Source: Escherichia coli (GTDB lineage: Bacteria; Pseudomonadota; Gammaproteobacteria; Enterobacterales; Enterobacteriaceae). From it: a DNA stretch of 51,502 bases. Below the pieces are notes generated by a model. That model did not search any database. It had not been told where the DNA came from and saw only the letters and a list, made by a program, of their open reading frames with translations. A program made the position numbers and the translations under genes. Shown here piece after piece: positions 2,782 to 51,433 of the stretch (position 1 is its first letter; each line of letters opens with the position of its first letter). The stretch lies in assembly GCF_003334255.1 (NCBI RefSeq), contig NZ_QOWU01000037.1; one strand, given 5' to 3'.

Positions 2782-3764
2782 CAGGCATACTCCTCAACAA
2801 TAACTATTCCCGGGGCACCGTCACCTCCCGATTGAGCCTCACTTCCGGCAGGTGCGCAGGCTCCGCCTCCGCCAGCACCAAAGCCCTCAGCTTTACCACC
2901 ACCACGTCCGCTGAATGATGAAGAACTTGCACCACCTATACCGCCTGAACCTAGTGGTGTATCCCCCCCGGTACCACCTGCAACAGCTTTAACAGAGATA
3001 ACCATTGCTCCTGGTGTTTTTGCACTACAGCGAAATGCTCTTAGTACAGTACCGGACGATGTCGGACTGGCACCCCATGAAATACCCTGAATATATGATG
3101 TGTTTGCAGATGCTCCCCCCGCGCCACCGCCTGTACCACCCGGTGCAGTTATCAGGGAACCGAAATAAGTTGTGCCACCTTCACTACCTGAATTTCTTCC
3201 GGCTCCCCCCCCTTTACCTGCAGCACCGATAATAACGTTGACTTCGAAATCATTATCAACCTCGAAAAATGCTTCAATAAATGCACCGCTCAATCCAGCT
3301 CCGGCTGTTGCCTGCTGATTTTCTGTTGTTTCAGGAACCCCACCGCCGCCGCCACCGCCACCAGAGGCAATGACCCTTATCTTTTTTGTCCCTGGTGTTG
3401 GGATATATTTTCCAGAGCTTTTAAAAATATTCGTGTTTAACAAACGACCAGAGAATCTGGCTTCTCCCAAACCAAGGTTTTCGAGAGCCGTTTGCACAGT
3501 GCCATCCGATTTGATATCGCCAAACGGATTCTTGCGGCTTAACAGCAGCGCACGAAGTGCGGTAAGCATCTGGTCATGCCGCCCTTTCTCCAGGCTGGCA
3601 CCGGAGGCCTCCACCACGCTACAAAGTTCTTCCTGCAACATGTCAAAGTAGTCATCATCCAGATCGGTGGCAGGTGTGCCGGTCTGGGGGTTACCACGGG
3701 TAAAACCGTTCTTACCCGCGCCGAACTTATCCTTCTGCGCGGTTTTCGTGTCTATACGATGCAT
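2781..3764 (-). CDS. Tail fibre protein (Mu S/gp49-like), Gly-rich; constant part 3476..3764, variable part 2781..3473
   Basis: 327 aa with poly-Gly/collagen-like runs (GGGGGGGG, GGTGGGAGGA); contains crossover site; position after gp48-like gene. Confidence 0.8.
3462..3487. other. gix/hix-like 26-bp invertase crossover site inside the tail-fibre gene
   Basis: TTCTCCCAAACC AA GGTTTTCGAGAG, an imperfect palindrome inverted relative to the site at 1745-1770. Confidence 0.8.
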
Positions 3765-7440: not shown

Positions 7441-8813
7441 TGCACTGGCACCTTCAGAGGGATCACCGGCACAAAGCCGGGATGCGTAATGGCATTACGC
7501 CGGATAATGTCCGCGTCACGCGCCGCGTTATCAAACCAGGTCGCCGCCAGCACCAGCGCGGGTAAAACCTCATCCGGTGTGCGCTGAATGATCCGTGCAG
7601 ACTGTTCAAGGCGCGTGTTGATATCCGCATTCAGATCTGCTTTCACCCGGCGCAGCGCCAGAAACAGCGCATCACTGGTTGTACGGGACAACTCCTTATC
7701 AATTGCCGTATTCAGTGTGTCGCGAATGTCAGTCAGTTCTTCCCACGTCGGCAGGTCAACCGTGTTTTTCACCGCCGGTGCATTGTTCAGTGCCGGATGC
7801 GTGACGGAAGGCCAGCCAGTGCTCTGCGCAGGTGTTGTTGCCTGCCCCACTGCGGAATTCTGCATCACCGCGGAAGTTGTTGGCGCAGGCAATCGGGTGA
7901 CGGCATACGCCGCTTCACTGATTGCGGTCGTACGAAGGGTGCTGGCAACCACATTACGCTGCTGCGTAGCCGTGGCGGTGGTTTTACTGTCCGTTTTCCA
8001 GACGCCGCGCGGTTGCAGATCGCTGCCGAGGCTGACACCGGAAAGCGTTTTGATCATGGTGACCAGGTCGCTGGCGTTACCATAAAGGCGTTTCCCGGTA
8101 CGCCACATTTTCTGCACCTGCTCAACGAGATTTTTGCCTGACGATGGTGGCGGCAGAAGTACCGAGATATCCCCCTGCAACAGCCTGGCAGCATCCGATA
8201 CGGCAGAATCCACCACTTTCATCGCATCAGAAACATACCCAAGCATTGTGCTGACATTACCAACGACGTCGTTCTGCACGAAATCCGCCACGCCATCGAT
8301 ACTGAAACCTCTGAAGCTGTCACTGATGCAGTCATCCAGTGCAGAACAGGATGACATCAGCGTCTGCGCCGTCGCCGCACCTGAAGTGGGGTAAGAGAGT
8401 TCTCCCGCTTCGACAAACTTCAGGTCAAAGCGGACAATACGCCCTTCACTCTTCGATGTGCTGACCCGAACTTCTCCGTCAACACAGACTTTCAGCTCAC
8501 CGTATGTCGGATGGACAAGCGTGCCGGGACCGGGTTTATTCAGCGCGTCAATCAGGCGATCGCGCTGGTCAAAGCAGTCATCTCCCACCACATAAGCCGT
8601 GATGGACGGGCGAAAAGTGATTTTCCCCAGGTCTTCGGTATAGGGTTTGTCGCGGTTCGGGTATTCATGTGTTTCCACACGGCGACCGGTTCCCGCACTT
8701 TCTTCTTCAACCTTAAACGGCACGCCGCGAAATGACGCGTCCTGAAGTCTGTCACGCCAGCCTGAAGACGACGAAAGTAATGAAGGTCGGGTGGGAAATG
8801 AGGATAAATCCAT
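7437..8813 (-). CDS. DNA circularisation protein N-like (Mu gp43-like)
   Basis: 458 aa, immediately downstream of tape measure; Mu-like order. Confidence 0.6.
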   Translation of the reverse strand: MDLSSFPTRPSLLSSSSGWRDRLQDASFRGVPFKVEEESAGTGRRVETHEYPNRDKPYTEDLGKITFRPSITAYVVGDDCFDQRDRLIDALNKPGPGTLVHPTYGELKVCVDGEVRVSTSKSEGRIVRFDLKFVEAGELSYPTSGAATAQTLMSSCSALDDCISDSFRGFSIDGVADFVQNDVVGNVSTMLGYVSDAMKVVDSAVSDAARLLQGDISVLLPPPSSGKNLVEQVQKMWRTGKRLYGNASDLVTMIKTLSGVSLGSDLQPRGVWKTDSKTTATATQQRNVVASTLRTTAISEAAYAVTRLPAPTTSAVMQNSAVGQATTPAQSTGWPSVTHPALNNAPAVKNTVDLPTWEELTDIRDTLNTAIDKELSRTTSDALFLALRRVKADLNADINTRLEQSARIIQRTPDEVLPALVLAATWFDNAARDADIIRRNAITHPGFVPVIPLKVPVQ

Positions 8814-10745: not shown

Positions 10746-10829
10746 GCTTCATCTCCTCATTTATACGGACGGCCTCTGCCTCCAGATCAGCAAAGTGGGA
10801 AATAGCCGTCCGGCGAAGTTCAAGGGGGT

Positions 10830-11153
10830 TTAATTTCCAGAACCACGCGACATTGTAGAATCGCTTCCGGAGGTCTCTTCCGTCTCCAAGCCGGTAAAAA
10901 AACGCATTACAATCATGCCTGCCTTGAAAATATCCAGCTTCGTCATCTGCGCTGCAGACGAGCGCGGGATCCCGGCCAGAAGCGGGATATATTTCAGCGC
11001 TACCTGACTGTCCATTTTCATACCACCATCAGGTGAAACAGAGAAAGGGAACCCCAGCGCCTCAATCTCGTCATACGTAGGCTCACGTATTTCCAGCACA
11101 TGCAGTGTTTCTTTGTGGGCGATGATCGGTTTTTTAAGTACAAGCTCAATCAC
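10830..11153 (-). CDS. Tail assembly chaperone (short form); -1 frameshift-extended form predicted to ~10740
   Basis: 107 aa between tube and tape measure; slippery T_TTT_TTT within ORF; the -1 frame is open ~50 codons to the tape-measure start. Confidence 0.7.
   Translation of the reverse strand: MIELVLKKPIIAHKETLHVLEIREPTYDEIEALGFPFSVSPDGGMKMDSQVALKYIPLLAGIPRSSAAQMTKLDIFKAGMIVMRFFTGLETEETSGSDSTMSRGSGN
10896..10902 (-). other. Predicted -1 programmed ribosomal frameshift slippery heptamer (U UUU UUU on mRNA)
   Basis: A7 run on plus strand = T7 on coding strand, in X_XXY_YYZ phase (cg[t ttt ttt]acc encoding R-F-F-T). Confidence 0.6.
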
Positions 11154-26923: not shown

Positions 26924-27110
26924 GCTTCACCTCCGCAGAGATCAAACGCTGGATGCAAAATATCGCAGGTGCATTTCTGCATCTGTGAATGGAGAAGAGA
27001 GGTTGGATTGTATGTGCGCATAAACGTCCCCGTTTAGCGCAGAAGTCACCGGAGTTGTTCAGGCTCCGATGACATGATTATGGCGGGTTGATTATGGAAA
27101 ATCAATCAAG

Positions 27111-27620
27111 CTATGTTTCATCGGCGAGGTCATCATCTGTGACAATCATGAGGTTAAAGAATGAAATAATGTTTAACCACTGCGAGTAAATATCGCTCGT
27201 CATGCTGGTTAGCTCCTCTCCGTGAAAGAAGGCATCAGGCCCAACCTCATAGTTGAGCTCTTCAAAAAGCTCCATGTTTAATTGGCTAATAAAGAATTGC
27301 TTCAGACCTTTCATTGCATCCTGATTGTTGGTATCTGAGTAATTTATTATGCTCCCCATTGCCATGTTCAAACATCGAACAATATTGGCTGCGTCATGAA
27401 AGCTCCAGTCAGCCCCTTTCTTTCCTTTTGAGTATGAATTCGCTCTCTCAGCGCAAGCTTTTAATGTCTCGTACAAATACTGCTTTCCTTGCAACTGCAA
27501 AGCTTTTTCGGATGTGGCCCTGCTAGCTTCTGAGGATCGCCATGCTAAATAAGTTGCTACCGCAGATGCGATAGCTGCAATCGCAGAAACTGCATCTATA
27601 CCGTTATCCCAACCAGACAT
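27111..27620 (-). CDS. Low-GC moron protein with single N-terminal TM helix (169 aa), function unknown
   Basis: N-terminus GIDAVSAIAAIASAVATYLAW hydrophobic; ~42% GC; SD GAGGGG embedded in 3' arm of an upstream hairpin. Confidence 0.55.
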   Translation of the reverse strand: MSGWDNGIDAVSAIAAIASAVATYLAWRSSEASRATSEKALQLQGKQYLYETLKACAERANSYSKGKKGADWSFHDAANIVRCLNMAMGSIINYSDTNNQDAMKGLKQFFISQLNMELFEELNYEVGPDAFFHGEELTSMTSDIYSQWLNIISFFNLMIVTDDDLADET

Positions 27621-27650
27621 AAAAACCCCCTCGATTATTTGAGGGGATTA
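27621..27650 (-). terminator. Hairpin + U-tract immediately upstream of the 169-aa ORF start; SD sequestered in 3' arm
   Basis: mRNA sense CCCCUC aaauaauc GAGGGG GUUUUU AUG; 6-bp G/C stem, 8-nt loop, U5 then start codon. Confidence 0.5.
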
Positions 27651-27669
27651 TACCTTCAAAGTTTCCGCG

Positions 27670-27864
27670 CTACCCATTCATAACTAAAGCTTTTGCTTTC
27701 CAATGAGAAAGCGCGCTATGTTCGCTAGAACCTGTTTCGACTATATGGCGCCCCCAGGAATCTCCCCATGCTCTCCACGTTGACTTGCCGGTTTGGACTA
27801 CTGTGACAACATACTCTTTGCCGTCGATGTTAACTTCATGCTGCACTGGTGATTGTGATTTCAT
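27670..27864 (-). CDS. Small hypothetical protein (64 aa from MKSQSP...; ORF open to 27891)
   Basis: AGAGG SD 7 nt upstream of internal ATG; low GC; paired with downstream TM-protein gene. Confidence 0.45.
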   Translation of the reverse strand: MKSQSPVQHEVNIDGKEYVVTVVQTGKSTWRAWGDSWGRHIVETGSSEHSALSHWKAKALVMNG

Positions 27865-27915
27865 TTTCAAACCTCTGCTTATCGTTGACATCGCAATTAT
27901 GCTGTCACGACATAA

Positions 27916-28722
27916 TCACTTCGCCTCCTGCTGCGGTGCTGCTGCGATCATGGCCTTCCATTGGTGGTCTGGGCTCCATAATCTACCGCCATCTTCACAC
28001 TCTTCCTGCGCCTGATGGTACGCCTCACGCATTTCTGGAGTTGGCTCCTTAGGAACCAGCACCCAACCATCCGGAATCACCGGAGAGTTGCTGACGGGCG
28101 ACTCGGAAATTTTTGGCGAAGAATCTAGGGCTGGCGCGGTCTGCATGGTGGTGGGCGACTCGGCTTTTTCGGCACCCTGAAGCATGGCGTCGCGGCATCC
28201 GTCATACGCTTCTTTCATAGCATCACGCACCCATCCGACAGGTTTCTGCTCAGTCAACTCACACCATTTCTCGAATGTGGGCACAGATACCGGAACTGGC
28301 GGTGCTGCATAAAGCGCCTGACAACTCCAGCCAGACCAGTGAGCACCCTCCGCTCTCTCATCATCTTCAGGGCGAACAAGCGTGACTTCGCTCGGGTGTT
28401 TCCTGTGTGACCACAGCCAGGCTACGGTTTCGGCATTGGCTGGCTCTGGCGGGGCGGAGTAAAAATACTCATCCTCAATCCCATCAACGGGCTTTGAGAA
28501 GCCGATAAAATCACCATAATGCCAAGGATAGGGGCCGTATGGCTCAGAGGTCACACGACGCCACCGGTGAATGGCAGGCTCCGCTTCGAGCGATGCCAGC
28601 GCGATACGCAGTGCCGCCAGCGTGTTGCTGTCGCCTTCGTCCAGACCGAACGGGATTTCATCTCTGGCTGCTTCCATGTCGGCAATTTTCTGCTGCAGCC
28701 ATTGTTTGGTAATAGTGCTCAT
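27916..28722 (-). CDS. Hypothetical lambdoid early-region protein (268 aa, Trp/Pro-rich)
   Basis: ORF with ATGA coupling to ead-like gene; common nin/ea-region position. Confidence 0.5.
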   Translation of the reverse strand: MSTITKQWLQQKIADMEAARDEIPFGLDEGDSNTLAALRIALASLEAEPAIHRWRRVTSEPYGPYPWHYGDFIGFSKPVDGIEDEYFYSAPPEPANAETVAWLWSHRKHPSEVTLVRPEDDERAEGAHWSGWSCQALYAAPPVPVSVPTFEKWCELTEQKPVGWVRDAMKEAYDGCRDAMLQGAEKAESPTTMQTAPALDSSPKISESPVSNSPVIPDGWVLVPKEPTPEMREAYHQAQEECEDGGRLWSPDHQWKAMIAAAPQQEAK

Positions 28723-29132
28723 GATGCCTCTCCTTTACCGGATGCGGCGGCGATCAGCTTCTGCGCCTGCTGAATGTCAGGATTGCCTGCAATCATCACT
28801 TCTGGCGCGTCACAGTCACCGCCAAGGTCAAGAATGCGCTCATGTCCGGTACGCAGGCAGGATTTGTATCCTGAAACCGTCTGCTTGAGCGATTCGGTCA
28901 GCACAGCAATCCTCTGGTCTTTGGCTTCCAGCTCATCCAGCAGCGCCAGCACTGTGGCTGGGTTGGCTACGGAGTTCAGCGCGTTCAAGGCAGTGATATC
29001 TGCATCAAGCTGAGTTCCTTCTGCCAGTGAGATATCGAAAATGTCATCAGGCGGCATAACACTAAGGCGCTCATGTGCACCAACTGCTGCCTCAGCGATT
29101 TCACGTAATGCGCGTTTGTCGATGTTGCTCAT
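28719..29132 (-). CDS. Ead/Ea22-like coiled-coil protein
   Basis: MSNIDKRALREIAEAAVGAHERL... typical N-terminus of Ead/Ea22-like proteins of lambdoid/Stx phages. Confidence 0.6.
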   Translation of the reverse strand: MSNIDKRALREIAEAAVGAHERLSVMPPDDIFDISLAEGTQLDADITALNALNSVANPATVLALLDELEAKDQRIAVLTESLKQTVSGYKSCLRTGHERILDLGGDCDAPEVMIAGNPDIQQAQKLIAAASGKGEAS

Positions 29133-29147
29133 TCTTCATCCTCCAAC

Positions 29148-29360
29148 TCAGATACGGCGTCCATTACATCTGAGCCGCGAATGGTTTCGAATGCCACACA
29201 AGACCATTTCAAAGCACAGGCGCTCATGCGGGTGCGGAGATTGCCAATACTTGAAGCCAGGACGATGCGAATAGCCCTGCATCGCATAAAACTCTCCGGC
29301 CAATTCAATGGCGGCATCCACCAGTTCACGGTTTGTCATTGGTTTGTCGATGTTGCTCAT
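29148..29360 (-). CDS. Small hypothetical protein sharing MSNIDK N-terminus
   Basis: 70 aa; first 19 nt of gene identical to start of ead-like gene. Confidence 0.4.
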   Translation of the reverse strand: MSNIDKPMTNRELVDAAIELAGEFYAMQGYSHRPGFKYWQSPHPHERLCFEMVLCGIRNHSRLRCNGRRI

Positions 29361-29557
29361 TGGGCGGCCTCCTGGATTAACTTTTCGAGAATGGCATCAA
29401 GGGCTTTCCGTTTTCCGATATACCCGCCACCAACCCACTCTCCACGAAGCAAGGCGTAATATTTCCCGTCGTCTTCGTGATACGGTCCTCGGATAGACCA
29501 GTCGGTTGTGATGGCGTCGATAGCCTTTTTAGTTTCTGCGAAATCCATCATGCTCAT
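29357..29557 (-). CDS. Small hypothetical protein (likely start MSMMDFAE...)
   Basis: ORF open to 29614; start placed at ATG overlapping upstream gene stop. Confidence 0.4.
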   Translation of the reverse strand: MSMMDFAETKKAIDAITTDWSIRGPYHEDDGKYYALLRGEWVGGGYIGKRKALDAILEKLIQEAAQ

Positions 29558-29847
29558 ACCCCTACCCTCCCCCAAACCATCAACACCCGCTTCATCGCGG
29601 CACTCTGGCGACACTCCTTAAAAATCAGGTTAGTGCTCACCTTTCCTTCCCGTTCTTCCCTGGTAGCGAATCTGTAATACACCGTTCGCCAGACCTTACC
29701 ATCTATGACCAAGATTCCTGCCCGCGCCATTTTAGCCGCAGCCTGATTTATGCTGGTTACTGTTGCGCCTGTTACCGCGGCAACGTCCAGCGCACAGAAG
29801 CTCTTATGCGTCCCCAGGTAATAAATAATTGCCTCTTTACCCGTCAT
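29554..29847 (-). CDS. Hypothetical small DNA-binding-like protein
   Basis: 97 aa; ATGA coupled downstream of P. Confidence 0.4.
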   Translation of the reverse strand: MTGKEAIIYYLGTHKSFCALDVAAVTGATVTSINQAAAKMARAGILVIDGKVWRTVYYRFATREEREGKVSTNLIFKECRQSAAMKRVLMVWGRVGV

Positions 29848-30545
29848 ACACTTGCTCCTTTCAGCCCAAACTTAGCTTTGATTTCTGCGATCTTCGCCAG
29901 AGCCTGTGCACGATTTAGAGGTCTACCGCCCATAACAGGAAGTTGTTTTACTGGTTCAGGTATCGTCTCACCACGGTTAATTCGCGCTGTCATACAGGTC
30001 AGTTCATCGGCAGCCTTGCGCCGTAATTCCGCGTCAGTCAGCGCATTGGCCCGCATGTTCTGGTACAAGTTGGTAACCAACCAGTAATGCGCGTTCGATT
30101 TCCACGGATAAGACTCTGCATCCGGATACAGGCCACGCTTCCGGCAATACTCGTAAACCATATCAACCAGCTCGCTGACGTTTGGCAGCCCGGCGTTAAC
30201 AGATGCTTCTTCCCGGCACCAGGCGACAAACTGCCCGGGTGATGGCAGGAATGGTCGATTCTGCCGACGGGCTACGCGCATTCCAGCGTTAACCTGTTCC
30301 ATTGTGGTGATCCCGTTTTCCCGGAAAGCCAGAACCCACTGGCGACGGATTTCGTTCAGTTCATTCTGGTCACGGTTAGCCAGGCTCGCCGGGAAAGTTG
30401 CCAGTAACTGGCTGAACACACCGTTGATGATCTGCGCTACCTGCTGTACCTGTGGCTTTTCGTCGTACTGTTCCGGCATGTTGTTGGCGATCCGGCGCAT
30501 CTGCTCACAGTCAAAGTTAACCATCTGTGCGGCGATGTTTTTCAT
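29844..30545 (-). CDS. P: Replication protein P (lambda P-like DnaB loader)
   Basis: 233 aa MKNIAAQMVNFD...KAKFGLKGASV, matches recalled lambda P nearly residue for residue. Confidence 0.9.
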   Translation of the reverse strand: MKNIAAQMVNFDCEQMRRIANNMPEQYDEKPQVQQVAQIINGVFSQLLATFPASLANRDQNELNEIRRQWVLAFRENGITTMEQVNAGMRVARRQNRPFLPSPGQFVAWCREEASVNAGLPNVSELVDMVYEYCRKRGLYPDAESYPWKSNAHYWLVTNLYQNMRANALTDAELRRKAADELTCMTARINRGETIPEPVKQLPVMGGRPLNRAQALAKIAEIKAKFGLKGASV

Positions 30546-31471
30546 AGCTCCACCCCGTAAATCCAGTCAGTGTTCGTCAGGTCGAGTTTTGGTTTGCCGG
30601 CTGTCACGCCAGCCTGTTGCTTGTTTCGGTTGATTTCGAGCTGGGTCCACTTGTCGCGGAGTTTGGCCGGACTTAGCACGTTACCGGACCAGAAGTTGTC
30701 CTGGCATGCCCAGCGGAACAGCACGCACATGTCGCGGTGGTTACGTCCGTCACGTTCACGCATCAGGCGGATATCGTTAGCCCACCCAGCAAAATTCGGT
30801 TTTCTGGCTGATGGCGCGATGGTCTTCACCATGTCAAACATCCACTCTGCGGCGGTCAGGTCTTCTGCTGTCCCCCACTTGCTGCCGCTCTGAATTGCAG
30901 CATCTGGTTTCACCACAGGAAGATCGTTTTCTGGTTGGTCAGAGGATTCGCCAGAATTCTCGGACGAAAAAGGTTTTATATTGTCTTTTGTTAGTTTGTC
31001 TTTTGTGTTTACCTGATTCGGGTAAACGCCTTTACCTGATTTGGGTAAACTTTTTTTACCTGATTCAGGTAAATTTACCTCTTTCAGGTAAACTTTATTT
31101 TTCTTACCTGATTCGGGTAATGTTGACCATTCACTGACCACATTATTAATGCCGGTATTCCGCCCGCTCTGAATAAAAATCCCACGCTTTACCAGAACAC
31201 TTTTTGCAGCAGAACACTTGTGCGGCAATATCCCGGTTAATTCGGAAAGTTGCTCGTTGCTAACCCAATCCAGTTTTTTATTAAAGCCATATGTTTTGCG
31301 CATGACAGCCAGAAAGACCAGAAGCTGGTGCTGTGTTAATCCGGCCAGCATCACAGCTTCCAGCAACTCATTTGCAATGCGCGTATAACCATCATCGAGA
31401 TCTGCCACGCGCGGCTCCTTTTGTGCCGCATCCGGCACTGGAAAATTGAATATCTCAGCAGTGTTTGCCAT
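30542..31471 (-). CDS. O: Replication initiator O (lambda O-like), contains ori iterons
   Basis: Start MANTAEIFNF with GGGAGG SD. N-terminal DNA-binding domain VADLDDGYTRIANELLEA similar to lambda O. Internal iteron-encoded repeats. ORF open upstream to 31561. Confidence 0.8.
   Translation of the reverse strand: MANTAEIFNFPVPDAAQKEPRVADLDDGYTRIANELLEAVMLAGLTQHQLLVFLAVMRKTYGFNKKLDWVSNEQLSELTGILPHKCSAAKSVLVKRGIFIQSGRNTGINNVVSEWSTLPESGKKNKVYLKEVNLPESGKKSLPKSGKGVYPNQVNTKDKLTKDNIKPFSSENSGESSDQPENDLPVVKPDAAIQSGSKWGTAEDLTAAEWMFDMVKTIAPSARKPNFAGWANDIRLMRERDGRNHRDMCVLFRWACQDNFWSGNVLSPAKLRDKWTQLEINRNKQQAGVTAGKPKLDLTNTDWIYGVEL
31010..31123. repeat. Origin iterons: five ~18-bp direct repeats TACCTGATTCGGGTAAAC inside O
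   Basis: Copies at 31010, 31033, 31057, 31076, 31106 with 1-4 mismatches; preceded by TTGTCTTTTG repeats and followed by AT-rich stretch. Confidence 0.8.
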
Positions 31472-31557
31472 AATTCCTCCCGCAATGAGTGTGTTACGAT
31501 TTGCACCTGAAAGTCGGTTCTGTTCCAGCAGACCGGCTTTCGCCATTTCTGAACCTG

Positions 31558-32097
31558 TCATATCGCCCCCAGCATGGTAGTAACCATCGCCATCAATGGA
31601 CCAGCCAGATCTGGGTCCACACGAAACATCGACACAATACCTTCACTAATTTCCTTCAGTTTCTGGTGGCGTGGTGCGTTGAGAATGACAGCCTGTTTTG
31701 CCTCACTGAGTTCCTTTTCCATTTCAGCCAACCTAGCCATGAAGCTATCCTGCTCAACCAGGTAACCGCGATATTCCAGCGGTAGTACCGCCAGAATTGC
31801 CGGGGTCAGTTCACGCACGTTATTTCGGTATTTTTCAGAATCGAATTTGTTATCGAGGAAGCGGAACAGCTTCTGGCGTGCACGGCTGACATCATCAGGG
31901 AAATCGATGGTGCCGCCGCCCTGCTCCCGATACTCATTCACAATGAGTGTGGCAACGACATCCTGATTATCTACAGCCGACCAGGCGCGGACGGCATCAC
32001 GGATTTTTTCGTGGCCTGGCACCTGTTTTGTTTGAGAACGATTTATCACCGCAGTCGGGCTAAATCCGCTAGTCTGTTGGTATGTAAGTGGTTGCAT
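31558..32097 (-). CDS. YdaT-like protein at the cII position (Rac YdaT family regulator)
   Basis: Segment VNEYREQGGGTIDFP...LTPAILAVLPLEYRGYLVE resembles recalled Rac YdaT (EEYLRQGGGELPLVP...LIPAILAILPRELRHRL); AAGGAG SD. Confidence 0.6.
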   Translation of the reverse strand: MQPLTYQQTSGFSPTAVINRSQTKQVPGHEKIRDAVRAWSAVDNQDVVATLIVNEYREQGGGTIDFPDDVSRARQKLFRFLDNKFDSEKYRNNVRELTPAILAVLPLEYRGYLVEQDSFMARLAEMEKELSEAKQAVILNAPRHQKLKEISEGIVSMFRVDPDLAGPLMAMVTTMLGAI

Positions 32098-32166
32098 AAT
32101 TGACTCCTTTAGTTTGAATTGACTGTTAAGTTGATTGCTTATTGTTAAAGAGCGTGAAATGGAAAT

Positions 32167-32397
32167 TTAAGCTGCGTTCTTTTCGGTGTGTGGAAACAAC
32201 TTCGGAAGATCCGGGCGAATCTGGTATGCCTTCACTACTCCACCAGTAGCCGTAACAATGCTGCCGACATGTTCAGGGGATACCTTTGCTTTGTTGTGAA
32301 GCCACTTATAGACGGCCTGCTGTGAAACTTCGCAAGCAGCGCCCAGTTTCTTTTGTGAACCAACGATATTGATCGCTGTTTTGATAGCTGGGTTCAT
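32167..32397 (-). CDS. cro: Cro-like / YdaS-family HTH repressor
   Basis: 76 aa, IVGSQKKLGAACEVSQQAVYKW HTH; divergent from cI; GGAGG SD. Confidence 0.8.
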   Translation of the reverse strand: MNPAIKTAINIVGSQKKLGAACEVSQQAVYKWLHNKAKVSPEHVGSIVTATGGVVKAYQIRPDLPKLFPHTEKNAA

Positions 32398-32501
32398 AAC
32401 AACCTCCGTGGTTAATTTGAATCAAGATTAAAACTATGGTTGTTTTTAGTCAACAACCATTTTCGTTTGATGGAATAAAACCTTGGTTGTACATTTGGAC
32501 T
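32398..32501. promoter_or_regulatory. OR/PR-PRM region between cro and cI with AACAACC/GGTTGTT operator half-sites
   Basis: Perfect inverted repeat ATGGTTGTT-N7-AACAACCAT at 32446-32470; additional AACAACC at 32399 and GGTTGT at 32485. Confidence 0.6.
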
Positions 32502-33191
32502 ATGAAAACAACACTCTCAGAAAGACTTAAAGAAGCCAGATTAGCGCGAGGCCTTACACAAAAGGCGCTTGGGGATTTGGTCGGGGTTAGCCAGGCTGCT
32601 ATTCAGAAAATCGAAACAGGGAAAGCTAATCAAACAACTAAAATCGTGGAGATCGCGAACGCTTTGGGTGTGCGCGCAGAATGGTTATCTTCTGGCGTTG
32701 GAAATATGTCAGACAGTACAGTGCAACCAATACAATCAACTGTCAGCCATTCCAAATACTTCAAGATTGACGTTCTTGATATAGAAGTCAGTGCTGGGCC
32801 GGGAGTCATCAACCGTGAGTTTGTAGAAGTTCTACGCTCGGTTGAGTACTCGTTTGACGATGCTCGTCACATGTTCGATGGTAGGAAGGCGGAAAATATC
32901 CGCATCATTAACGTGCGTGGTGACAGCATGTCAGGAACGATCGAACCAGGTGATCTGCTGTTCGTTGATATCACAGTTAAATCTTTCGACGGTGATGGTA
33001 TCTATGCGTTTCTGTACGACGACACAGCCCATGTAAAGCGCCTGCAAATGATGAAGGATAAGCTGCTGGTCATCTCTGATAACAAAAGCTACTCACCGTG
33101 GGACCCGATCGAGAAAGACGAGATGAACCGGGTGTTCATCTTCGGTAAGGTTATTGGGAGCATGCCGCAGACATATAGGAAGCATGGGTAG
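32502..33191 (+). CDS. cI: CI-type repressor (XRE HTH + S24 LexA-like peptidase domain)
   Basis: HTH LTQKALGDLVGVSQAAIQKIETG; Ala-Gly cleavage site (VSAGPG); Ser/Lys dyad (RGDSMSGT ... HVKRL). ORF open upstream to 32436. Confidence 0.85.
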   Translation: MKTTLSERLKEARLARGLTQKALGDLVGVSQAAIQKIETGKANQTTKIVEIANALGVRAEWLSSGVGNMSDSTVQPIQSTVSHSKYFKIDVLDIEVSAGPGVINREFVEVLRSVEYSFDDARHMFDGRKAENIRIINVRGDSMSGTIEPGDLLFVDITVKSFDGDGIYAFLYDDTAHVKRLQMMKDKLLVISDNKSYSPWDPIEKDEMNRVFIFGKVIGSMPQTYRKHG

Positions 33192-33312
33192 TACCAATTA
33201 AAAATTATCAACTGGGCATTGTGCTCATTCAGTAAAGAACTAATTCCTATCTTTGCTCTAGGTAGTAATATTAAGCCACCGCAATAATATCTTTACCTAA
33301 CGGCGTAAGAAT

Positions 33313-33339
33313 CCCGGTCACCGTGCCGGGTTTTCTTTT
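33313..33339 (+). terminator. Rho-independent terminator downstream of cI
   Basis: CCCGG tcaccgtg CCGGG followed by TTTTCTTTT. Confidence 0.7.
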
Positions 33340-33449
33340 GCCCTCCCCTCATCACACACACCGTTAAAAAAACCACCATAACCTCGCTTCAGTTATCGCT
33401 ATGCGATTCAAGTCACAAAATAAATCCATCCTAAATACAACCAGTTATA

Positions 33450-33510
33450 TCTAAAACAACCAATAAAACAACTTTTGTTGTTGACGATAAAACAACTATA
33501 GTTTTAAATA
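33450..33510 (+). promoter_or_regulatory. Candidate OL/PL: operator-like repeats and -35/-10 elements driving the gam-bet-exo-xis-int operon
   Basis: AACAAC TTTT GTTGTT palindrome (33469-33484) overlapping TTGACG (-35 like) with TTAAAT 17 bp downstream; AACAACTATAGTT repeat; same AACAAC half-site as OR. Confidence 0.45.
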
Positions 33511-33702
33511 AGTTCATCGCAACAACACAACGATACGGCAACTACCTGATTCACCGTTGCGATGACCGCTTAGATCCGCAGTTTGAATTTCAGCAGGCTT
33601 CGGGGAGTGCGAGGGGTGAAACGGACGCGTGAACGTCGGTGTGACCAGCTGAAATTAACTCAACATTTCATACCTTAGTCGCTTCAACGAGGCGGCTTAG
33701 TT

Positions 33703-33993
33703 ATGACAACCGGCGGCCATCCACCGCCTGAATACGCGCAGAAGTCTCTATATGTTCAGCAGCCCAGCTTACGGGCAGGAGTTTTTATGGTTCATCAACA
33801 TTATGGAACGCAGACCGTTAATCGAGGTGCGGTCATGCCAGGAATGCTGGTCAAACACAAAGATGGTACCTGGACTGCATCAGCTAATTTACGCGGACGG
33901 CTTTATCTGCATCGCGGCATCGAGTGCACTTATACCCGTGATTTGCTCGTGGAAGTTTTTCTCGACGGACGCGGTAACGGCCTGAATCACTAA
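33703..33993 (+). CDS. Hypothetical early protein at kil/cIII position (alternative strong-SD start at 33784)
   Basis: 96-aa ORF; CAGGAG SD precedes internal ATG 33784; not Arg-rich, not N-like. Confidence 0.4.
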
Positions 33994-34068
33994 TCCCCTT
34001 TCCTGTTTTCCTAATCAGCCTGGCATTTCGCGGGCGATATTTTCACAGCCATTTTCAGGAGGTCAGCC

Positions 34069-34365
34069 ATGAACGCTTATTACATTCAGGATCGTCTTGA
34101 GGCTCAGAGCTGGGCGCGTCACTACCAGCAGATCGCCCGTGAAGAGAAAGAGGCAGAACTGGCAGACGACATGGAAAAAGGCCTGCCCCAGCACCTGTTT
34201 GAATCGCTATGCATCGATCATTTGCAACGCCACGGGGCCAGCAAAAAAGCCATTATCCGTGCGTTTGATGACGATGTTGAGTTTCAGGAGCGCATGGCAG
34301 AACACATCCAGTACATGGTTGAAACCATTGCTCACCACCAGGTTGATATTGATTCAGAGGTATAA
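34069..34365 (+). CDS. gam: Gam (RecBCD inhibitor), GamS form
   Basis: [21 protein letters not shown]...[10 protein letters not shown] matches recalled lambda Gam; upstream in-frame codons resemble degenerate GamL N-terminus without ATG. Confidence 0.9.
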
Positions 34366-34370
34366 AACGG

Positions 34371-35156
34371 ATGAGTACAGCACTCGCAACGCTGGCAGGG
34401 AAGCTGGCTGAACGTGTCGGCATGGATTCTGTCGACCCACAGGAACTGATCACCACTCTTCGCCAGACGGCATTTAAAGGTGATGCCAGCGATGCGCAGT
34501 TCATCGCATTGTTGATCGTCGCCAACCAGTACGGCCTTAATCCGTGGACGAAAGAAATTTACGCCTTCCCTGATAAGCAGAACGGCATCGTTCCGGTGGT
34601 GGGCGTTGATGGCTGGTCCCGCATCATCAATGAAAACCAGCAGTTTGATGGCATGGACTTTGAGCAGGACAATGAATCCTGTACATGCCGGATTTACCGC
34701 AAGGACCGTAATCATCCGATCTGCGTTACCGAATGGATGGATGAATGCCGCCGCGAACCATTCAAAACTCGCGAAGGCAGAGAAATCACGGGGCCGTGGC
34801 AGTCGCATCCCAAACGGATGTTACGGCATAAAGCCATGATTCAGTGTGCCCGTCTGGCCTTCGGATTTGCTGGTATCTATGACAAGGATGAAGCCGAGCG
34901 CATTGTCGAAAATACTGCATACACTGCAGAACGTCAGCCAGAACGCGACATCACTCCGGTTAACGATGAAACCATGCAGGAGATTAACACTCTGCTGATC
35001 GCCCTGGATAAAACATGGGATGACGACTTATTGCCGCTCTGTTCCCAGATATTTCGCCGCGACATTCGCGCATCGTCAGAACTGACACAGGCCGAAGCAG
35101 TGAAAGCTCTTGGATTCCTGAAACAGAAAGCCACTGAGCAGAAGGTGGCAGCATGA
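34371..35156 (+). CDS. bet: Bet single-strand annealing protein (Red beta)
   Basis: 261 aa [37 protein letters not shown]... matches recalled lambda Bet. Confidence 0.95.
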
Positions 35157-35833
35157 CACCGGACATTATCCTGCAGCGTACCGGGATCGACGTGAGAGCT
35201 GTCGAACAGGGGGATGATGCGTGGCACAAATTACGGCTCGGCGTCATCACCGCTTCAGAAGTTCACAATGTGATAGCAAAACCCCGCTCCGGAAAGAAAT
35301 GGCCTGACATGAAAATGTCCTACTTCCACACCCTGCTTGCCGAGGTTTGCACCGGTGTGGCTCCGGAAGTTAACGCTAAGGCGCTGGCCTGGGGAAAACA
35401 GTACGAGAACGACGCCAGAGTCCTGTTTGAGTTTACTTCCGGCGTGAATGTTACTGAATCACCGATCATCTATCGCGACGAAAGTATGCGCACCGCCTGC
35501 TCTCCCGATGGTTTATGCAGTGACGGCAATGGCCTTGAGCTGAAATGCCCGTTTACCTCCCGGGATTTCATGAAGTTCCGGCTCGGTGGTTTCGAGGCCA
35601 TAAAGTCAGCTTACATGGCCCAGGTGCAGTACAGCATGTGGGTGACTCGAAAAGATGCCTGGTACTTTGCCAACTATGACCCGCGCATGAAGCGTGAAGG
35701 CCTGCATTATGTCGTGATTGAGCGGAATGAAAAGTACATGGCGAGTTTTGACGAGATGGTGCCGGAGTTCATCGAAAAAATGGACGAGGCACTGGCTGAA
35801 ATTGGTTTTGTATTTGGGGAGCAATGGCGATGA
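35153..35833 (+). CDS. exo: Lambda exonuclease (Red alpha)
   Basis: 226 aa [40 protein letters not shown]... matches recalled lambda Exo. Confidence 0.95.
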
Positions 35834-36468: not shown

Positions 36469-36566
36469 ACATGAAAAGCAAAATCATCAGGGAGCTACAG
36501 GCTCCTTTTTTATTGTTCGCATTCACCCTCAAGCGTATTAACCAACAATTCAGGGATTAATGGAAG

Positions 36567-38488: not shown

Positions 38489-38564
38489 TGGTGCCGATAA
38501 TAGGAGTCGAACCTACGACCTTCGCATTACGAATGCGCTGCTCTACCAACTGAGCTATATCGGC
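38489..38564 (-). tRNA. thrW: tRNA-Thr (anticodon CGU), thrW; phage attachment site
   Basis: GCCGATATAGCTCAGTTGGTAGAGCAGCGCATTCGTAATGCGAAGGTCGTAGGTTCGACTCCTATTATCGGCACCA; cloverleaf with CGT anticodon and encoded CCA. Confidence 0.9.
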
Positions 38565-38678: not shown

Positions 38679-39932
38679 TTACGCACGAATGGTGTAATCA
38701 CCAATGCCGATCCACTTGTAAGTGGTCAGTGCTTCCAGCCCCATTGGGCCACGCGCGTGGAGTTTTTGTGTGCTTACCGCCACTTCCGCACCCAGACCAA
38801 ACTGGCCGCCGTCGGTAAAACGCGTAGAGGCGTTAACGTAAACAGCGGACGAATCCACTTCGTTAACAAAACGCTGGGCGTTGCGCATATCGCGGGTCAG
38901 GATCGCATCGGAGTGTTGTGTGCCGTGTTCACGAATATGGGCGATGGCATCGTCAAGATCGCTGACGATTTTGACGTTCAAATCTAATGACAGAAACTCA
39001 TCGTCATACTCTTCGGCTTTAACAGCAACCACCTTCGCAGGGCCTGCCTGCAACTGCGCCAGTGCAGCTGCATCTGCGTGTAATGTCACGCCGCTTTCCG
39101 CCATTTGTTTGCTTAATGCGGGCAGGAAGCTATCGGCGATGTTTTTATTCACCAGCAACGTTTCAACCGTATTACATGTGCTCGGACGCTGAGTTTTCGC
39201 GTTGACGATCACTTTTAATGCTTCAGCGATCTCTACACTTTCATCAACGTAAATATGGCATACGCCTATACCACCTGTGATCACCGGGATTGTCGACTGT
39301 TCACGGCACAGTTTATGCAAACCAGCGCCACCACGCGGGATCAGCATGTCGATGTATTTATCCATACGCAGCATTTCACTGACCAGCGCACGGTCAGGAT
39401 TATCAATCGCCTGCACGGCACCCGCCGGTAAGCCGCAGGATTTCAGGGCGTCCTGAATCACCGCCACCGTTGCAGCGTTAGTGCGACACGTTTCTTTGCC
39501 ACCGCGCAGGATCACCGCATTACCGGTTTTCAGGCACAGCGAAGCGACATCAACCGTCACGTTCGGGCGCGCTTCATAAATCACGCCAATAACCCCCAGC
39601 GGTACGCGACGACGCTCAAGACGCAGGCCGCTGTCCAGTACGCCGCCATCGATTACCTGCCCCACCGGATCGGCGAGGTTGCACACCTGACGTACATCGT
39701 CGGCAATGCCTTTCAGCCGTGCGGGCGTCAGTGCCAGACGGTCAAGCATCGCTTCGCTAAGGCCATTGGCTCGCGCGTCAGCAACATCCTGGGCGTTAGC
39801 GTTGAGGATGATTTCGCTTTGTGCTTCCAGTTCATCGGCGATTTTTTCCAGCACGCGATTTTTTTCGCGGCTGGAGAGTTGCGCTAATTTATACGAGGCT
39901 TGCTTCGCGGCAATGCCCATTTGTTCCAGCAT
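38679..39932 (-). CDS. proA: Gamma-glutamyl phosphate reductase
   Basis: 417 aa matching recalled E. coli ProA. Confidence 0.95.
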
Positions 39933-50630: not shown

Positions 50631-51433
50631 TGAACCGCCCCGGAAATCCTGGAGACTAAACTCCCTGAGAAAGAGGTAAACAGGATGACTAAAAATACTC
50701 GTTTTTCCCCCGAAGTCCGTCAGCGGGCGATTCGTATGGTTCTGGAAAGTCAGGATGAATATGACTCACAGTGGGCGGCAATTTGTTCCATTGCCCCAAA
50801 GATTGGCTGTACGCCGGAGACTCTGCGTGTCTGGGTTCGCCAGCATGAGCGGGATACCGGGGGCGGTGATGGAGGGCTCACCACCGCTGAACGTCAGCGT
50901 CTGAAAGAGCTGGAACGTGAAAATCGTGAACTGCGCCGCAGTAACGATATCCTTCGCCAGGCTTCCGCTTATTTTGCGAAGGCGGAGTTCGACCGCCTCT
51001 GGAAAAAATGATGCCACTGCTGGATAAGCTGCGTGAGCAGTACGGGGTCGGACCGGTATGCAGCGAACTGCATATTGCCCCGTCAACGTATTACCATTGT
51101 CAGCAACAGCGACATCATCCGGATAAACGCAGTGCCCGTGCGCAGCACGATGACTGGCTGAAGAGAGAGATACAGCGCGTATACGATGAAAATCATCAGG
51201 TGTACGGTGTGCGTAAAGTCTGGCGTCAGTTGTTACGGGAAGGAATCAGGGTGGCCAGATGTACAGTGGCGCGCCTCATGGCGGTTATGGGACTTGCCGG
51301 TGTTCTCCGGGGTAAAAAGGTCCGCACTACCGTCAGCCGGAAAACCGTTGCCACAGGTGACCGCGTAAACCGTCAGTTCGTGGCAGAACGTCCTGACCAG
51401 CTGTGGGTGGCTGATTTTACTTACGGTGTGCCC
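50631..51433 (+). mobile_element. IS629 (IS3 family) 5' fragment, interrupted before the DDE domain
   Basis: Terminal TGAACCGCCCCGG; orfA and orfB proteins match recalled IS629. orfB frame diverges after ...WVADFTY and stops. Confidence 0.75.
50685..51011 (+). CDS. IS629 OrfA (transposase HTH/leucine-zipper subunit)
   Basis: [42 protein letters not shown]... Confidence 0.85.

Follow-up and report, generated by a model that had tools for sequence, protein, structure and literature searches.

The DNA analysed here, a stretch of 51,502 nucleotides (nt) from Escherichia coli (contig NZ_QOWU01000037.1 of assembly GCF_003334255.1; we call the whole of it the window), carries the immunity and early-control region of a lambdoid prophage, and our subject is how its two early operons may be controlled without a protein N: the left operon through the leader between the promoter PL and the cell-division inhibitor gene kil, the right operon through the short interval behind cro. 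The prophage belongs to a family of lambdoid prophages that is very common in E. coli and includes PhiR34_1, Turner, 4A7 and Perceval. Its early region is 97.4% identical to phage PhiR34_1 across 8 kb, and 99.9% identical across 33200–34070. The deposited PhiR34_1 genome is described as complete, with E. coli K-12 MG1655 named as its host; it is annotated with Q and without N, and has the same leader as the window, down to a TAG codon discussed below; we count it as evidence of viability.

The repressor gene cI (32502–33191, plus strand; helix-turn-helix, PF01381, E = 5e-13; S24 peptidase, PF00717, E = 1e-18) is divergent from an operon on the minus strand in which the cro slot holds a YdaS-family helix-turn-helix protein (32167–32397; PF15943, E = 4e-17; phrog_35) and the cII slot a YdaT-family protein (31558–32097; PF06254, E = 8.5e-30; phrog_163 'CII-like transcriptional activator', E = 4e-67), followed by the replication genes O (30542–31561; PF04492, E = 1e-33) and lambda-type P (29844–30545; PF06992, E = 7.8e-62). 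On the plus strand, which corresponds to leftward transcription in lambda, OL/PL (33465–33509; -35 TTGACG at 33481–33486, 17-nt spacer, -10 TTAAAT at 33504–33509) would start transcription at about 33516. A 270-nt leader then precedes kil (33787–33993; KilR/phi80 type; phrog_294, E = 8e-37, and PGAP annotation of relatives), gam, bet and exo of lambda Red (34069–35833; Gam by PF06064, E = 1e-63, bet and exo from the annotation of relatives) and homologues of orf60a, 63 and 61. An earlier note, made from the letters of the window, had described a lambdoid immunity and early region with a YdaS-like cro and a YdaT-like protein in the cII slot joined to lambda Red and O/P, and the Pfam and PHROG matches bear this out. 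The cII-analogue function of the YdaT-family protein is taken from published work (PMC9986795). YdaS and YdaT are already published as the equivalents of cro and cII (PMC9986795, PMC8630535, PMC5917428), and a YdaS/YdaT switch grafted onto lambda is not new. Rac and CP-933P share the Pfam families and the order cI, cro (YdaS), YdaT, O with the window (PMC9986795, PMC8630535); they are cryptic remnants, whereas the phage type seen in the window is complete and apparently viable.

No N homologue was found by PHROG and Pfam searches among the early open reading frames (ORFs) of the window, unassigned ones included, and none is annotated in PhiR34_1, 4A7 or Perceval or in any of the 16 phages that carry module A, as we call the PL-proximal segment of the leader (33517–33665, plus strand). 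N is not the first gene behind PL, boxA occurs on the PR side only and lacks a hairpin, no boxB-like hairpin is common to the two early operons of the window, and a boxA is missing from the PL leader at all 64 module-A loci. The region resembles the N-nut systems of lambda and phi80 in having a boxA directly 3' of cro, as in nutR, and an arginine-rich motif (ARM) like that of N just downstream of PL; it differs from them in lacking an N homologue, boxB, a boxA in the PL leader and phi80's N-tL1A cassette. An N-like protein encoded in the leader is not supported. Lambdoid phages without an N homologue are common. Their early expression is usually put down to a mechanism that is 'perhaps put-like' (e.g. 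PMC12315714).

The earlier note had likewise suggested that the leader might be a cis-acting RNA like HK022 put, and had proposed a comparison of fold and covariation. We located HK022 putL and putR by published primer and residue numbering (PMC9986795), and built a covariance model (R1) from six putL RNAs (HK022, HK639, phiEt88, UPF_BP1, CobraSix and S9-5), which was searched with filters off. The model found the held-out putR of HK022 and UPF_BP1 (43 and 44 bits; E ~1e-8) and gave no match in the leader of the window (33510–33790) or of 4A7, the best window matches having E >= 0.47 and lying elsewhere. Because the model recovers held-out putR yet finds nothing in the leader, the leader is not a member of the put family. 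Rfam yielded chance matches only (gathering thresholds for the whole window; E <= 10 for 31400–34200), and a search of the PR operon and the rest of the window for a second or R-side copy of the leader found none. The leader resembles HK022 and HK639 put in its position immediately past PL of a lambdoid phage without N function, and HK639 also shares with the window the order cI, cro, 181-aa 'CII-like activator', kil, gam, and has its put site on the L side only. It differs in lacking the invariant motifs GAACGGCGCG, TAAACCATGCGTCGG and GGCGGG-TCAGGA and a covarying two-stem fold. The put explanation is thus wrong for the most widespread E. coli type of N-less lambdoid phage.

We compared the leader across 16 phages, over 120 IMG/VR contigs and 5426 complete E. 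coli genomes. Module A is present at >=93% identity in the 16 phages and in 2314 of the genomes (~40%), and is confined to lambdoid phages and prophages of E. coli; it was not found in any of ten divergent Kil-bearing loci from other genera. Its start coincides with the inferred start of transcription in two immunity types that are unrelated to each other; the mosaic junction with other types falls at 33516/17, and an O157-type version joins at 33550 and is without the first 34 nt. When module A was aligned locally with the PL leaders of phi80, L093 (a locus with an analogous leader), HK639, HK225 and HK022, the scores stayed within shuffles (z <= 2.2), the first 26 nt being all that it has in common with that of L093. 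At 0.023, diversity in the core of module A is the same as at kil codon positions 1+2 and lower than at kil third positions (0.071), which suggests from sequence comparison that module A is under constraint, although mosaicism confounds this comparison; the figures for gam and bet were inflated by non-homologous segments and were not used.

The earlier note had quoted several potential stems in the GC-rich leader; the stretch that contains them folds no better than shuffled sequences (z = -0.96, and z = -0.58 for 33575–33665), and common substitutions at 33600, 33616 and 33656 break predicted pairs. None of 34 consensus pairs shows compensatory change (RNAalifold), a null result that is uninformative because diversity is low. 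The sole part that folds better than shuffles is the 5'-terminal hairpin of the PL transcript (33515–33564, plus strand; CAUCGCAAC ... GUUGCGAUG; z = -2.49, 4/200 shuffles as good), in which only one-sided, pair-keeping changes occur. This suggests that the 5'-terminal stem-loop is selected, possibly as a stabiliser of the mRNA. The hairpin is built on CAUCGC at the start of the transcript, closed in the window by a distal 3' arm. By eye, the L093 leader (10805–10830) also begins with CATCGC and has a nearby GCGATG that could close it, so that the two leaders may share a start-of-transcript hairpin, of which only the window's was scored.

Module A is followed by module B (33666–33735, plus strand), which is common to phi80, HK225 and HK639 and recurs in over 120 IMG/VR contigs. 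It is 95% identical to HK225, where the adjoining kil is only 72% identical. In the genome of a laboratory strain it has a partial match of 84% (H124), which may be Rac. Among 103 unique upstream contexts of module B, drawn from 126 matched stretches, 53 have a sequence other than module A, which usually ends in a strong intrinsic terminator right next to CATACCTCAG. The phi80 annotation names this terminator tL1A and places it directly after N, with nutL upstream; in two IMG/VR contigs a CobraSix-type putL lies directly before module B, at module A's place. Because nutL-N-tL1A and putL occupy its slot before module B, module A is positionally interchangeable with both. It contains no terminator itself, and between PL and exo we found no strong terminator-like site, only weak candidates of 5–6 bp at 33936, 34018 and 34489.

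Within module B, hairpin A (33668–33706, plus strand; inner stem 33677–33685/33689–33697) pairs both the Shine-Dalgarno (SD) sequence GAGG (33689–33692) and the AUG (33703–33705) of a conserved upstream ORF (uORF). Among 22 distinct sequences, 97.7% of cells were paired and six pairs had double changes; the search pattern constrained the 3' outer arm but left the inner stem free. None of 500 shuffles reached the observed value, and slid controls were 25–48% paired. Variants of the stem include GUCGC/GCGGC, GCAAC/GUUGC and GAGUCA/UGGCUC, and in carriers of module A the pair 33680/33695 is C-G, C.A or U-A, a compensation at the level of the RNA that is non-synonymous in the long reading frame. 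Hairpin A is a real conserved RNA structure that hides the SD and AUG of the uORF.

The uORF, which begins MTTGGHPPP... (33703–33786, plus strand), runs in frame into kil in the window; it is a separate ORF of 21 codons in HK225 and phi80 and out of frame with kil in DX6. Its GGHPP is encoded by a second hairpin, B (GGCGG-CCAUCCA-CCGCC, 33712–33728), which in HK639 is annotated together with a U-tract as a terminator; the window is without the U-tract there. As a unit, this kil-leader module spans 33668–33728 in the window, ~8420–8480 in phi80 (L144), ~3500–3565 in HK225 (L005) and 2610–2670 in HK639 (L008). Hairpin A is like translational-control hairpins with leader ORFs before toxic phage genes in that it pairs the SD and AUG of a short conserved ORF directly before kil and that an upstream ORF ends in it or reads through it. 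We found no published description of the element, and infer its mechanism from structure only.

That upstream ORF is a candidate mini-ORF in frame 1 of the leader (33616–33678, plus strand; MKRTRERRCDQLKLTQHFIP*, with a GTG start and a TAG stop), which begins MKRTRERRCDQLK... and has an SD-like GGAG 8 nt upstream. The frame codes for ...SRLRGVRGVKRTRERRCDQLK... and runs from TTG 33583 or GTG 33616 to TAG 33676, for 20–31 codons. Its KRTRERR resembles TRRRERR and TRRHERR, the ARM cores of the lambda and P22 N proteins. Of 51 haplotypes, six have ATG in place of GTG 33616, always together with TAG 33676, which gives a clean ORF of 20 codons; position 33676 is TAG in 13 and CAG in 38. No indel was seen in 33616–33675 among the 51 haplotypes, the two that were seen lying upstream of 33616, and 63% of the diversity falls at third codon positions (permutation p = 0.04–0.07). 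Searches of PHROGs, Pfam, 50,697 phage records and a set of 5.8 billion proteins turned up these E. coli sequences again and deletion fusions, but no other homologues. Translation of the mini-ORF is plausible but unproven. We considered a fusion of the ARM to Kil as a conserved product and rejected it, since TAG occurs as an allele, the frame differs in DX6 and the compensatory changes are of the RNA type. The earlier statement that no Arg-rich, N-like ORF follows PL is mistaken in this form: frame 1 contains an Arg-rich ORF, for which no homologue was found. To call the leader simply untranslated, as the same note had offered, is a simplification of a segment with a 5' hairpin, a possible 20-codon Arg-rich ORF and a conserved uORF whose SD and AUG lie in a covarying hairpin.

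On the PR side, the cro strand carries a perfect rrn-type boxA (CGCTCTTTAACAAT) 13 nt past the cro stop. The element as a whole (CGCUCUUUAACAA; 32142–32154, minus strand) ends 44 nt before the ydaT AUG. Several matches identify it: firstly, GCTCTTTAACAA at 32153->32142 fits the pattern at 12/12 positions and is the only exact match in the 51.5-kb window, where we calculate ~0.006 to be expected; secondly, GCTCTTTAACA at 32153->32143, on the transcribed strand, is the sole window match to the functional consensus GYTCTTTAANA (PMC5725501); thirdly, all 13 bases of GCUCUUUAACAAU are the same as in the rrn boxA-spacer oligonucleotide of PMC2724277. No boxB-like hairpin follows (minimum free energy -3.7 kcal/mol; z = -0.24 against shuffles), and the RNA of the cro-ydaT spacer is without structure and poor in G (22% C and 9% G on the RNA strand). 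Rho loads on RNA of this kind, and the place of the spacer corresponds to that of nutR and tR1 in lambda. The earlier note had seen nothing like boxA or boxB downstream of cro, which is correct for boxB and mistaken for boxA. As in the rrn/suhB boxA-Nus system (NusB/E/A/G and SuhB), the element matches the consensus, is single-stranded, lies <50 nt from a start codon (PMC5725501) and does not require a phage protein. The difference is that it sits in a phage early operon without boxB or boxC context; its sequence and position suggest that it could recruit Nus factors and SuhB.

The boxA junction is present in 1515 of the 5426 E. coli genomes, and a diverged variant (L146) has the boxA GTTCTTTAACA, still inside the consensus. 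N-type relatives have CGCTCTTTAACAAT as their nutR boxA too, followed by the boxB GGCUGAGUAAUCAGCC, while UPF_BP1 has a homologous cro followed by putR. Among the 59 module-A loci with enough upstream sequence, 28 carry a boxA that fits the consensus, and these 28 share the immunity type of the window; the 4A7 locus has no exact boxA. Minority variants (L051; L146, ~2263–2320, compared with 32098–32141 of the window) carry 12 extra nt between two TAACAG repeats, which form a hairpin of boxB-like size (GACUG-AUUAA/AUGAA-CAGUC) 22 nt past boxA that is missing from the window and most genomes.

The reading that we prefer, at a probability of roughly one half, is that of an early region which works without N and without put: its left operon would need no N as the N-tL1 cassette is absent, and its right operon would use host Nus factors at boxA. 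On the left, the nutL-N with tL1A, or putL, of relatives is replaced by the 150-nt, terminator-free module A, and because module A takes the place of the cassette and has no terminator, polymerase from PL would reach kil-gam-bet-exo without a dedicated antiterminator. The transcript would begin with a hairpin that is probably a stabiliser, and would probably carry the 20-codon Arg-rich mini-ORF in translated form, a step with weak support. The mini-ORF would end inside, or read through, hairpin A, which occludes the SD and AUG of the uORF before kil; ribosomes arriving from it would open hairpin A and also shield the long leader from Rho. On the right, the boxA after cro would recruit NusB/NusE and the Nus/SuhB complex, as its sequence and position suggest, and this complex may modulate Rho-dependent termination or ydaT translation without N. 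The late genes still depend on Q. The analysis pinpoints three elements: behind cro, a host boxA that fits the consensus; in the N or put slot, a conserved segment; and before the toxic kil, a covarying hairpin that guards it. If module A or the lone boxA gives read-through independent of N, the region would represent a new phage route into the host's rRNA antitermination machinery; if not, it shows how the mere loss of an N-tL1 cassette makes a lambdoid phage independent of N.

Several observations weigh against this reading. The remaining 31 of the 59 module-A loci, which have 4A7-type immunity, are without a consensus boxA on the PR side, and because about half of the module-A loci lack it, boxA cannot be the general solution; moreover, boxA can repress as well as antiterminate, for example at suhB (PMC5725501). 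Translation of the mini-ORF is weakly supported, with p ~0.04, no homologues, a polymorphic stop and a start that is mostly not ATG, and mosaicism clouds the comparison of module A with kil. Good terminator-like sites remain at 36489–36507 (plus strand), before xis/int, and at 27649->27624 (minus strand), before Q, and a device for read-through may still be needed. The persistence of these sites leaves a small probability for such a role of module A, which might be an antiterminator in its own right: like putL it begins where transcription starts, it is constrained, in each carrier it fills the slot of N or put, and none of the carriers has N.

An alternative that we consider unlikely is that module A is functionless filler, left by a recombination or deletion that removed N-tL1 and conserved only through recent spread with the linked kil-Red genes, and that boxA is a relic of an ancestral nutR. 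The narrow distribution, low divergence and missing covariation of module A would fit, as would a Klebsiella phage of the same immunity type whose PL leader of ~75 nt has neither N nor module A; N-type relatives have the same boxA with a boxB, and the window's deletion of 12 nt between the TAACAG repeats removes the hairpin seen in the variants. A mere filler would, however, hardly show a diversity three times below that of kil third positions, a junction placed precisely at the transcription start in different immunity types or an interval of 33616–33675 free of indels in 51 haplotypes, nor would a relic be expected to stay inside the functional boxA consensus in a diverged lineage.

Distinctly unlikely, in our estimate, is that the Arg-rich ORF encodes a functional small protein, either an ARM peptide like N or Nun or, in CAG alleles, an N-terminal extension of Kil, that acts on RNA or RNA polymerase. 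The likeness of KRTRERR to the lambda and P22 N ARM cores, the SD-like GGAG 8 nt before GTG 33616, the clean ORF of 20 codons and the lack of internal indels, the third-position periodicity of diversity, and the boxB-like hairpin 22 nt past boxA in minority variants all speak for it. Yet the ORF has no homologues in any of the sets searched, 20 residues are too short for the NusA- and RNA polymerase-binding parts of N, and no boxB-like hairpin is common to both operons of the window. The frame into Kil is not kept, as 13 of the 51 haplotypes have TAG and DX6 is out of frame; the changes at 33680/33695 compensate RNA pairing and are non-synonymous in the ORF, and CGN arginine codons can be a by-product of G+C-rich sequence.

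A broader version, that module A, as RNA alone or with the Arg-rich peptide of 20 residues, is a third early antitermination or anti-Rho device interchangeable with nutL-N-tL1 and putL, strikes us as improbable. We hold least probable of all that module A alone is a new cis-acting processive antiterminator RNA, a put analogue unrelated in sequence that modifies PL polymerase to pass terminators: its position is that of putL and nutL-N in relatives, its start falls at the inferred start of transcription in two immunity types that are unrelated, its sequence is constrained (0.023 against 0.071, with the reservation made above), 16 of 16 phage carriers are without an annotated N, the terminator-like site at 36489–36507 persists in the PL operon and HK639 likewise has put on the L side only, but no put-model or Rfam match was found, 33575–33665 folds like shuffles with none of 34 pairs covarying, common substitutions at 33600, 33616 and 33656 break predicted pairs, there is no R-side copy, and the O157-type version does without the first 34 nt.

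The operators of the switch are marked by the motif AAAACAAC-N4-GTTKT, which occurs three times (0.19 expected), in OR at 32430–32446 and in OL at 33465–33481 and 33489–33505, and nowhere outside OR/OL. OR/PR (32425–32460) contains the operator AAAACAACCATAGTTTT at 32430–32446, a palindrome at 32436–32460 and the PR -35 TTGACT at 32453->32448; PL and PR are paralogous. An operator half-site recurring in OR and OL had been noted before, rightly, at coordinates that are off by 2–10 nt. The cI ORF is open from ATG 32436, within the OR palindrome, and a 251-aa form is annotated in PhiR34_1; ATG 32502 (MKTTLSERLK...) seems the more likely start. The intrinsic terminator 3' of cI (33313–33340, plus strand) is kept in relatives. 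In phi80 the slot equivalent to that of the YdaT-family protein holds a 180-aa 'CII-like transcriptional activator', which may belong to the YdaT family.

The YdaT operator TTGATTN6AATCAA, the equivalent of PRE, had no match with <=2 mismatches at the ydaS/ydaT junction (32090–32200), the nearest match to it lying at 32408–32425 with two mismatches. Because recognition loops vary within the YdaT family (PMC9986795), this absence is not decisive. A perfect match, TTGATTTTCCATAATCAA, lies at 27088–27105, overlapping the -35 of a promoter-like site (TTGATT-17-CATAAT; 27077–27105, minus strand) that faces ybcN-ninE-rusA-Q; the site coincides with a mosaic junction to PhiR34_1 and lies just downstream of the good terminator-like hairpin at 27649->27624. 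From its sequence, it may serve the nin/Q region as an internal promoter under YdaT control. The ~2.5 kb between ren and the ybcN-like region (27105–29585) is without a counterpart in PhiR34_1 and holds ORFs of phrog_1779, phrog_60, phrog_14548 and phrog_4132.

The replication origin lies inside O, with five iterons TTTACCTGATTCGGGTAAA at 31008–31129 (direct repeat family D1). Beyond the orf60a/63/61 homologues come a TraR/DksA-like gene, xis and int, and the prophage is inserted at tRNA-Thr(CGT) (38489–38564), beside proA (38679–39932); DUF1317 and DUF1382 proteins were assigned by Pfam search. The rexAB slot between cI and OL is empty in the window (33192–33460). In relatives it holds a SIR2 protein (O157:H7), a HipA-family kinase with a DUF3037 protein, a BamE-like lipoprotein or an ASCH-domain protein (cargo at L006 1549–3150, L007 1690–3263, L146 615–995 and L002 2660–4076), and it looks like a hot spot for the insertion of defence genes and morons. 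Outside the prophage, an ALIL pseudoknot (RF01497, 121 bits) at 50966–51082 is the programmed-frameshift signal of an IS3-family insertion sequence.

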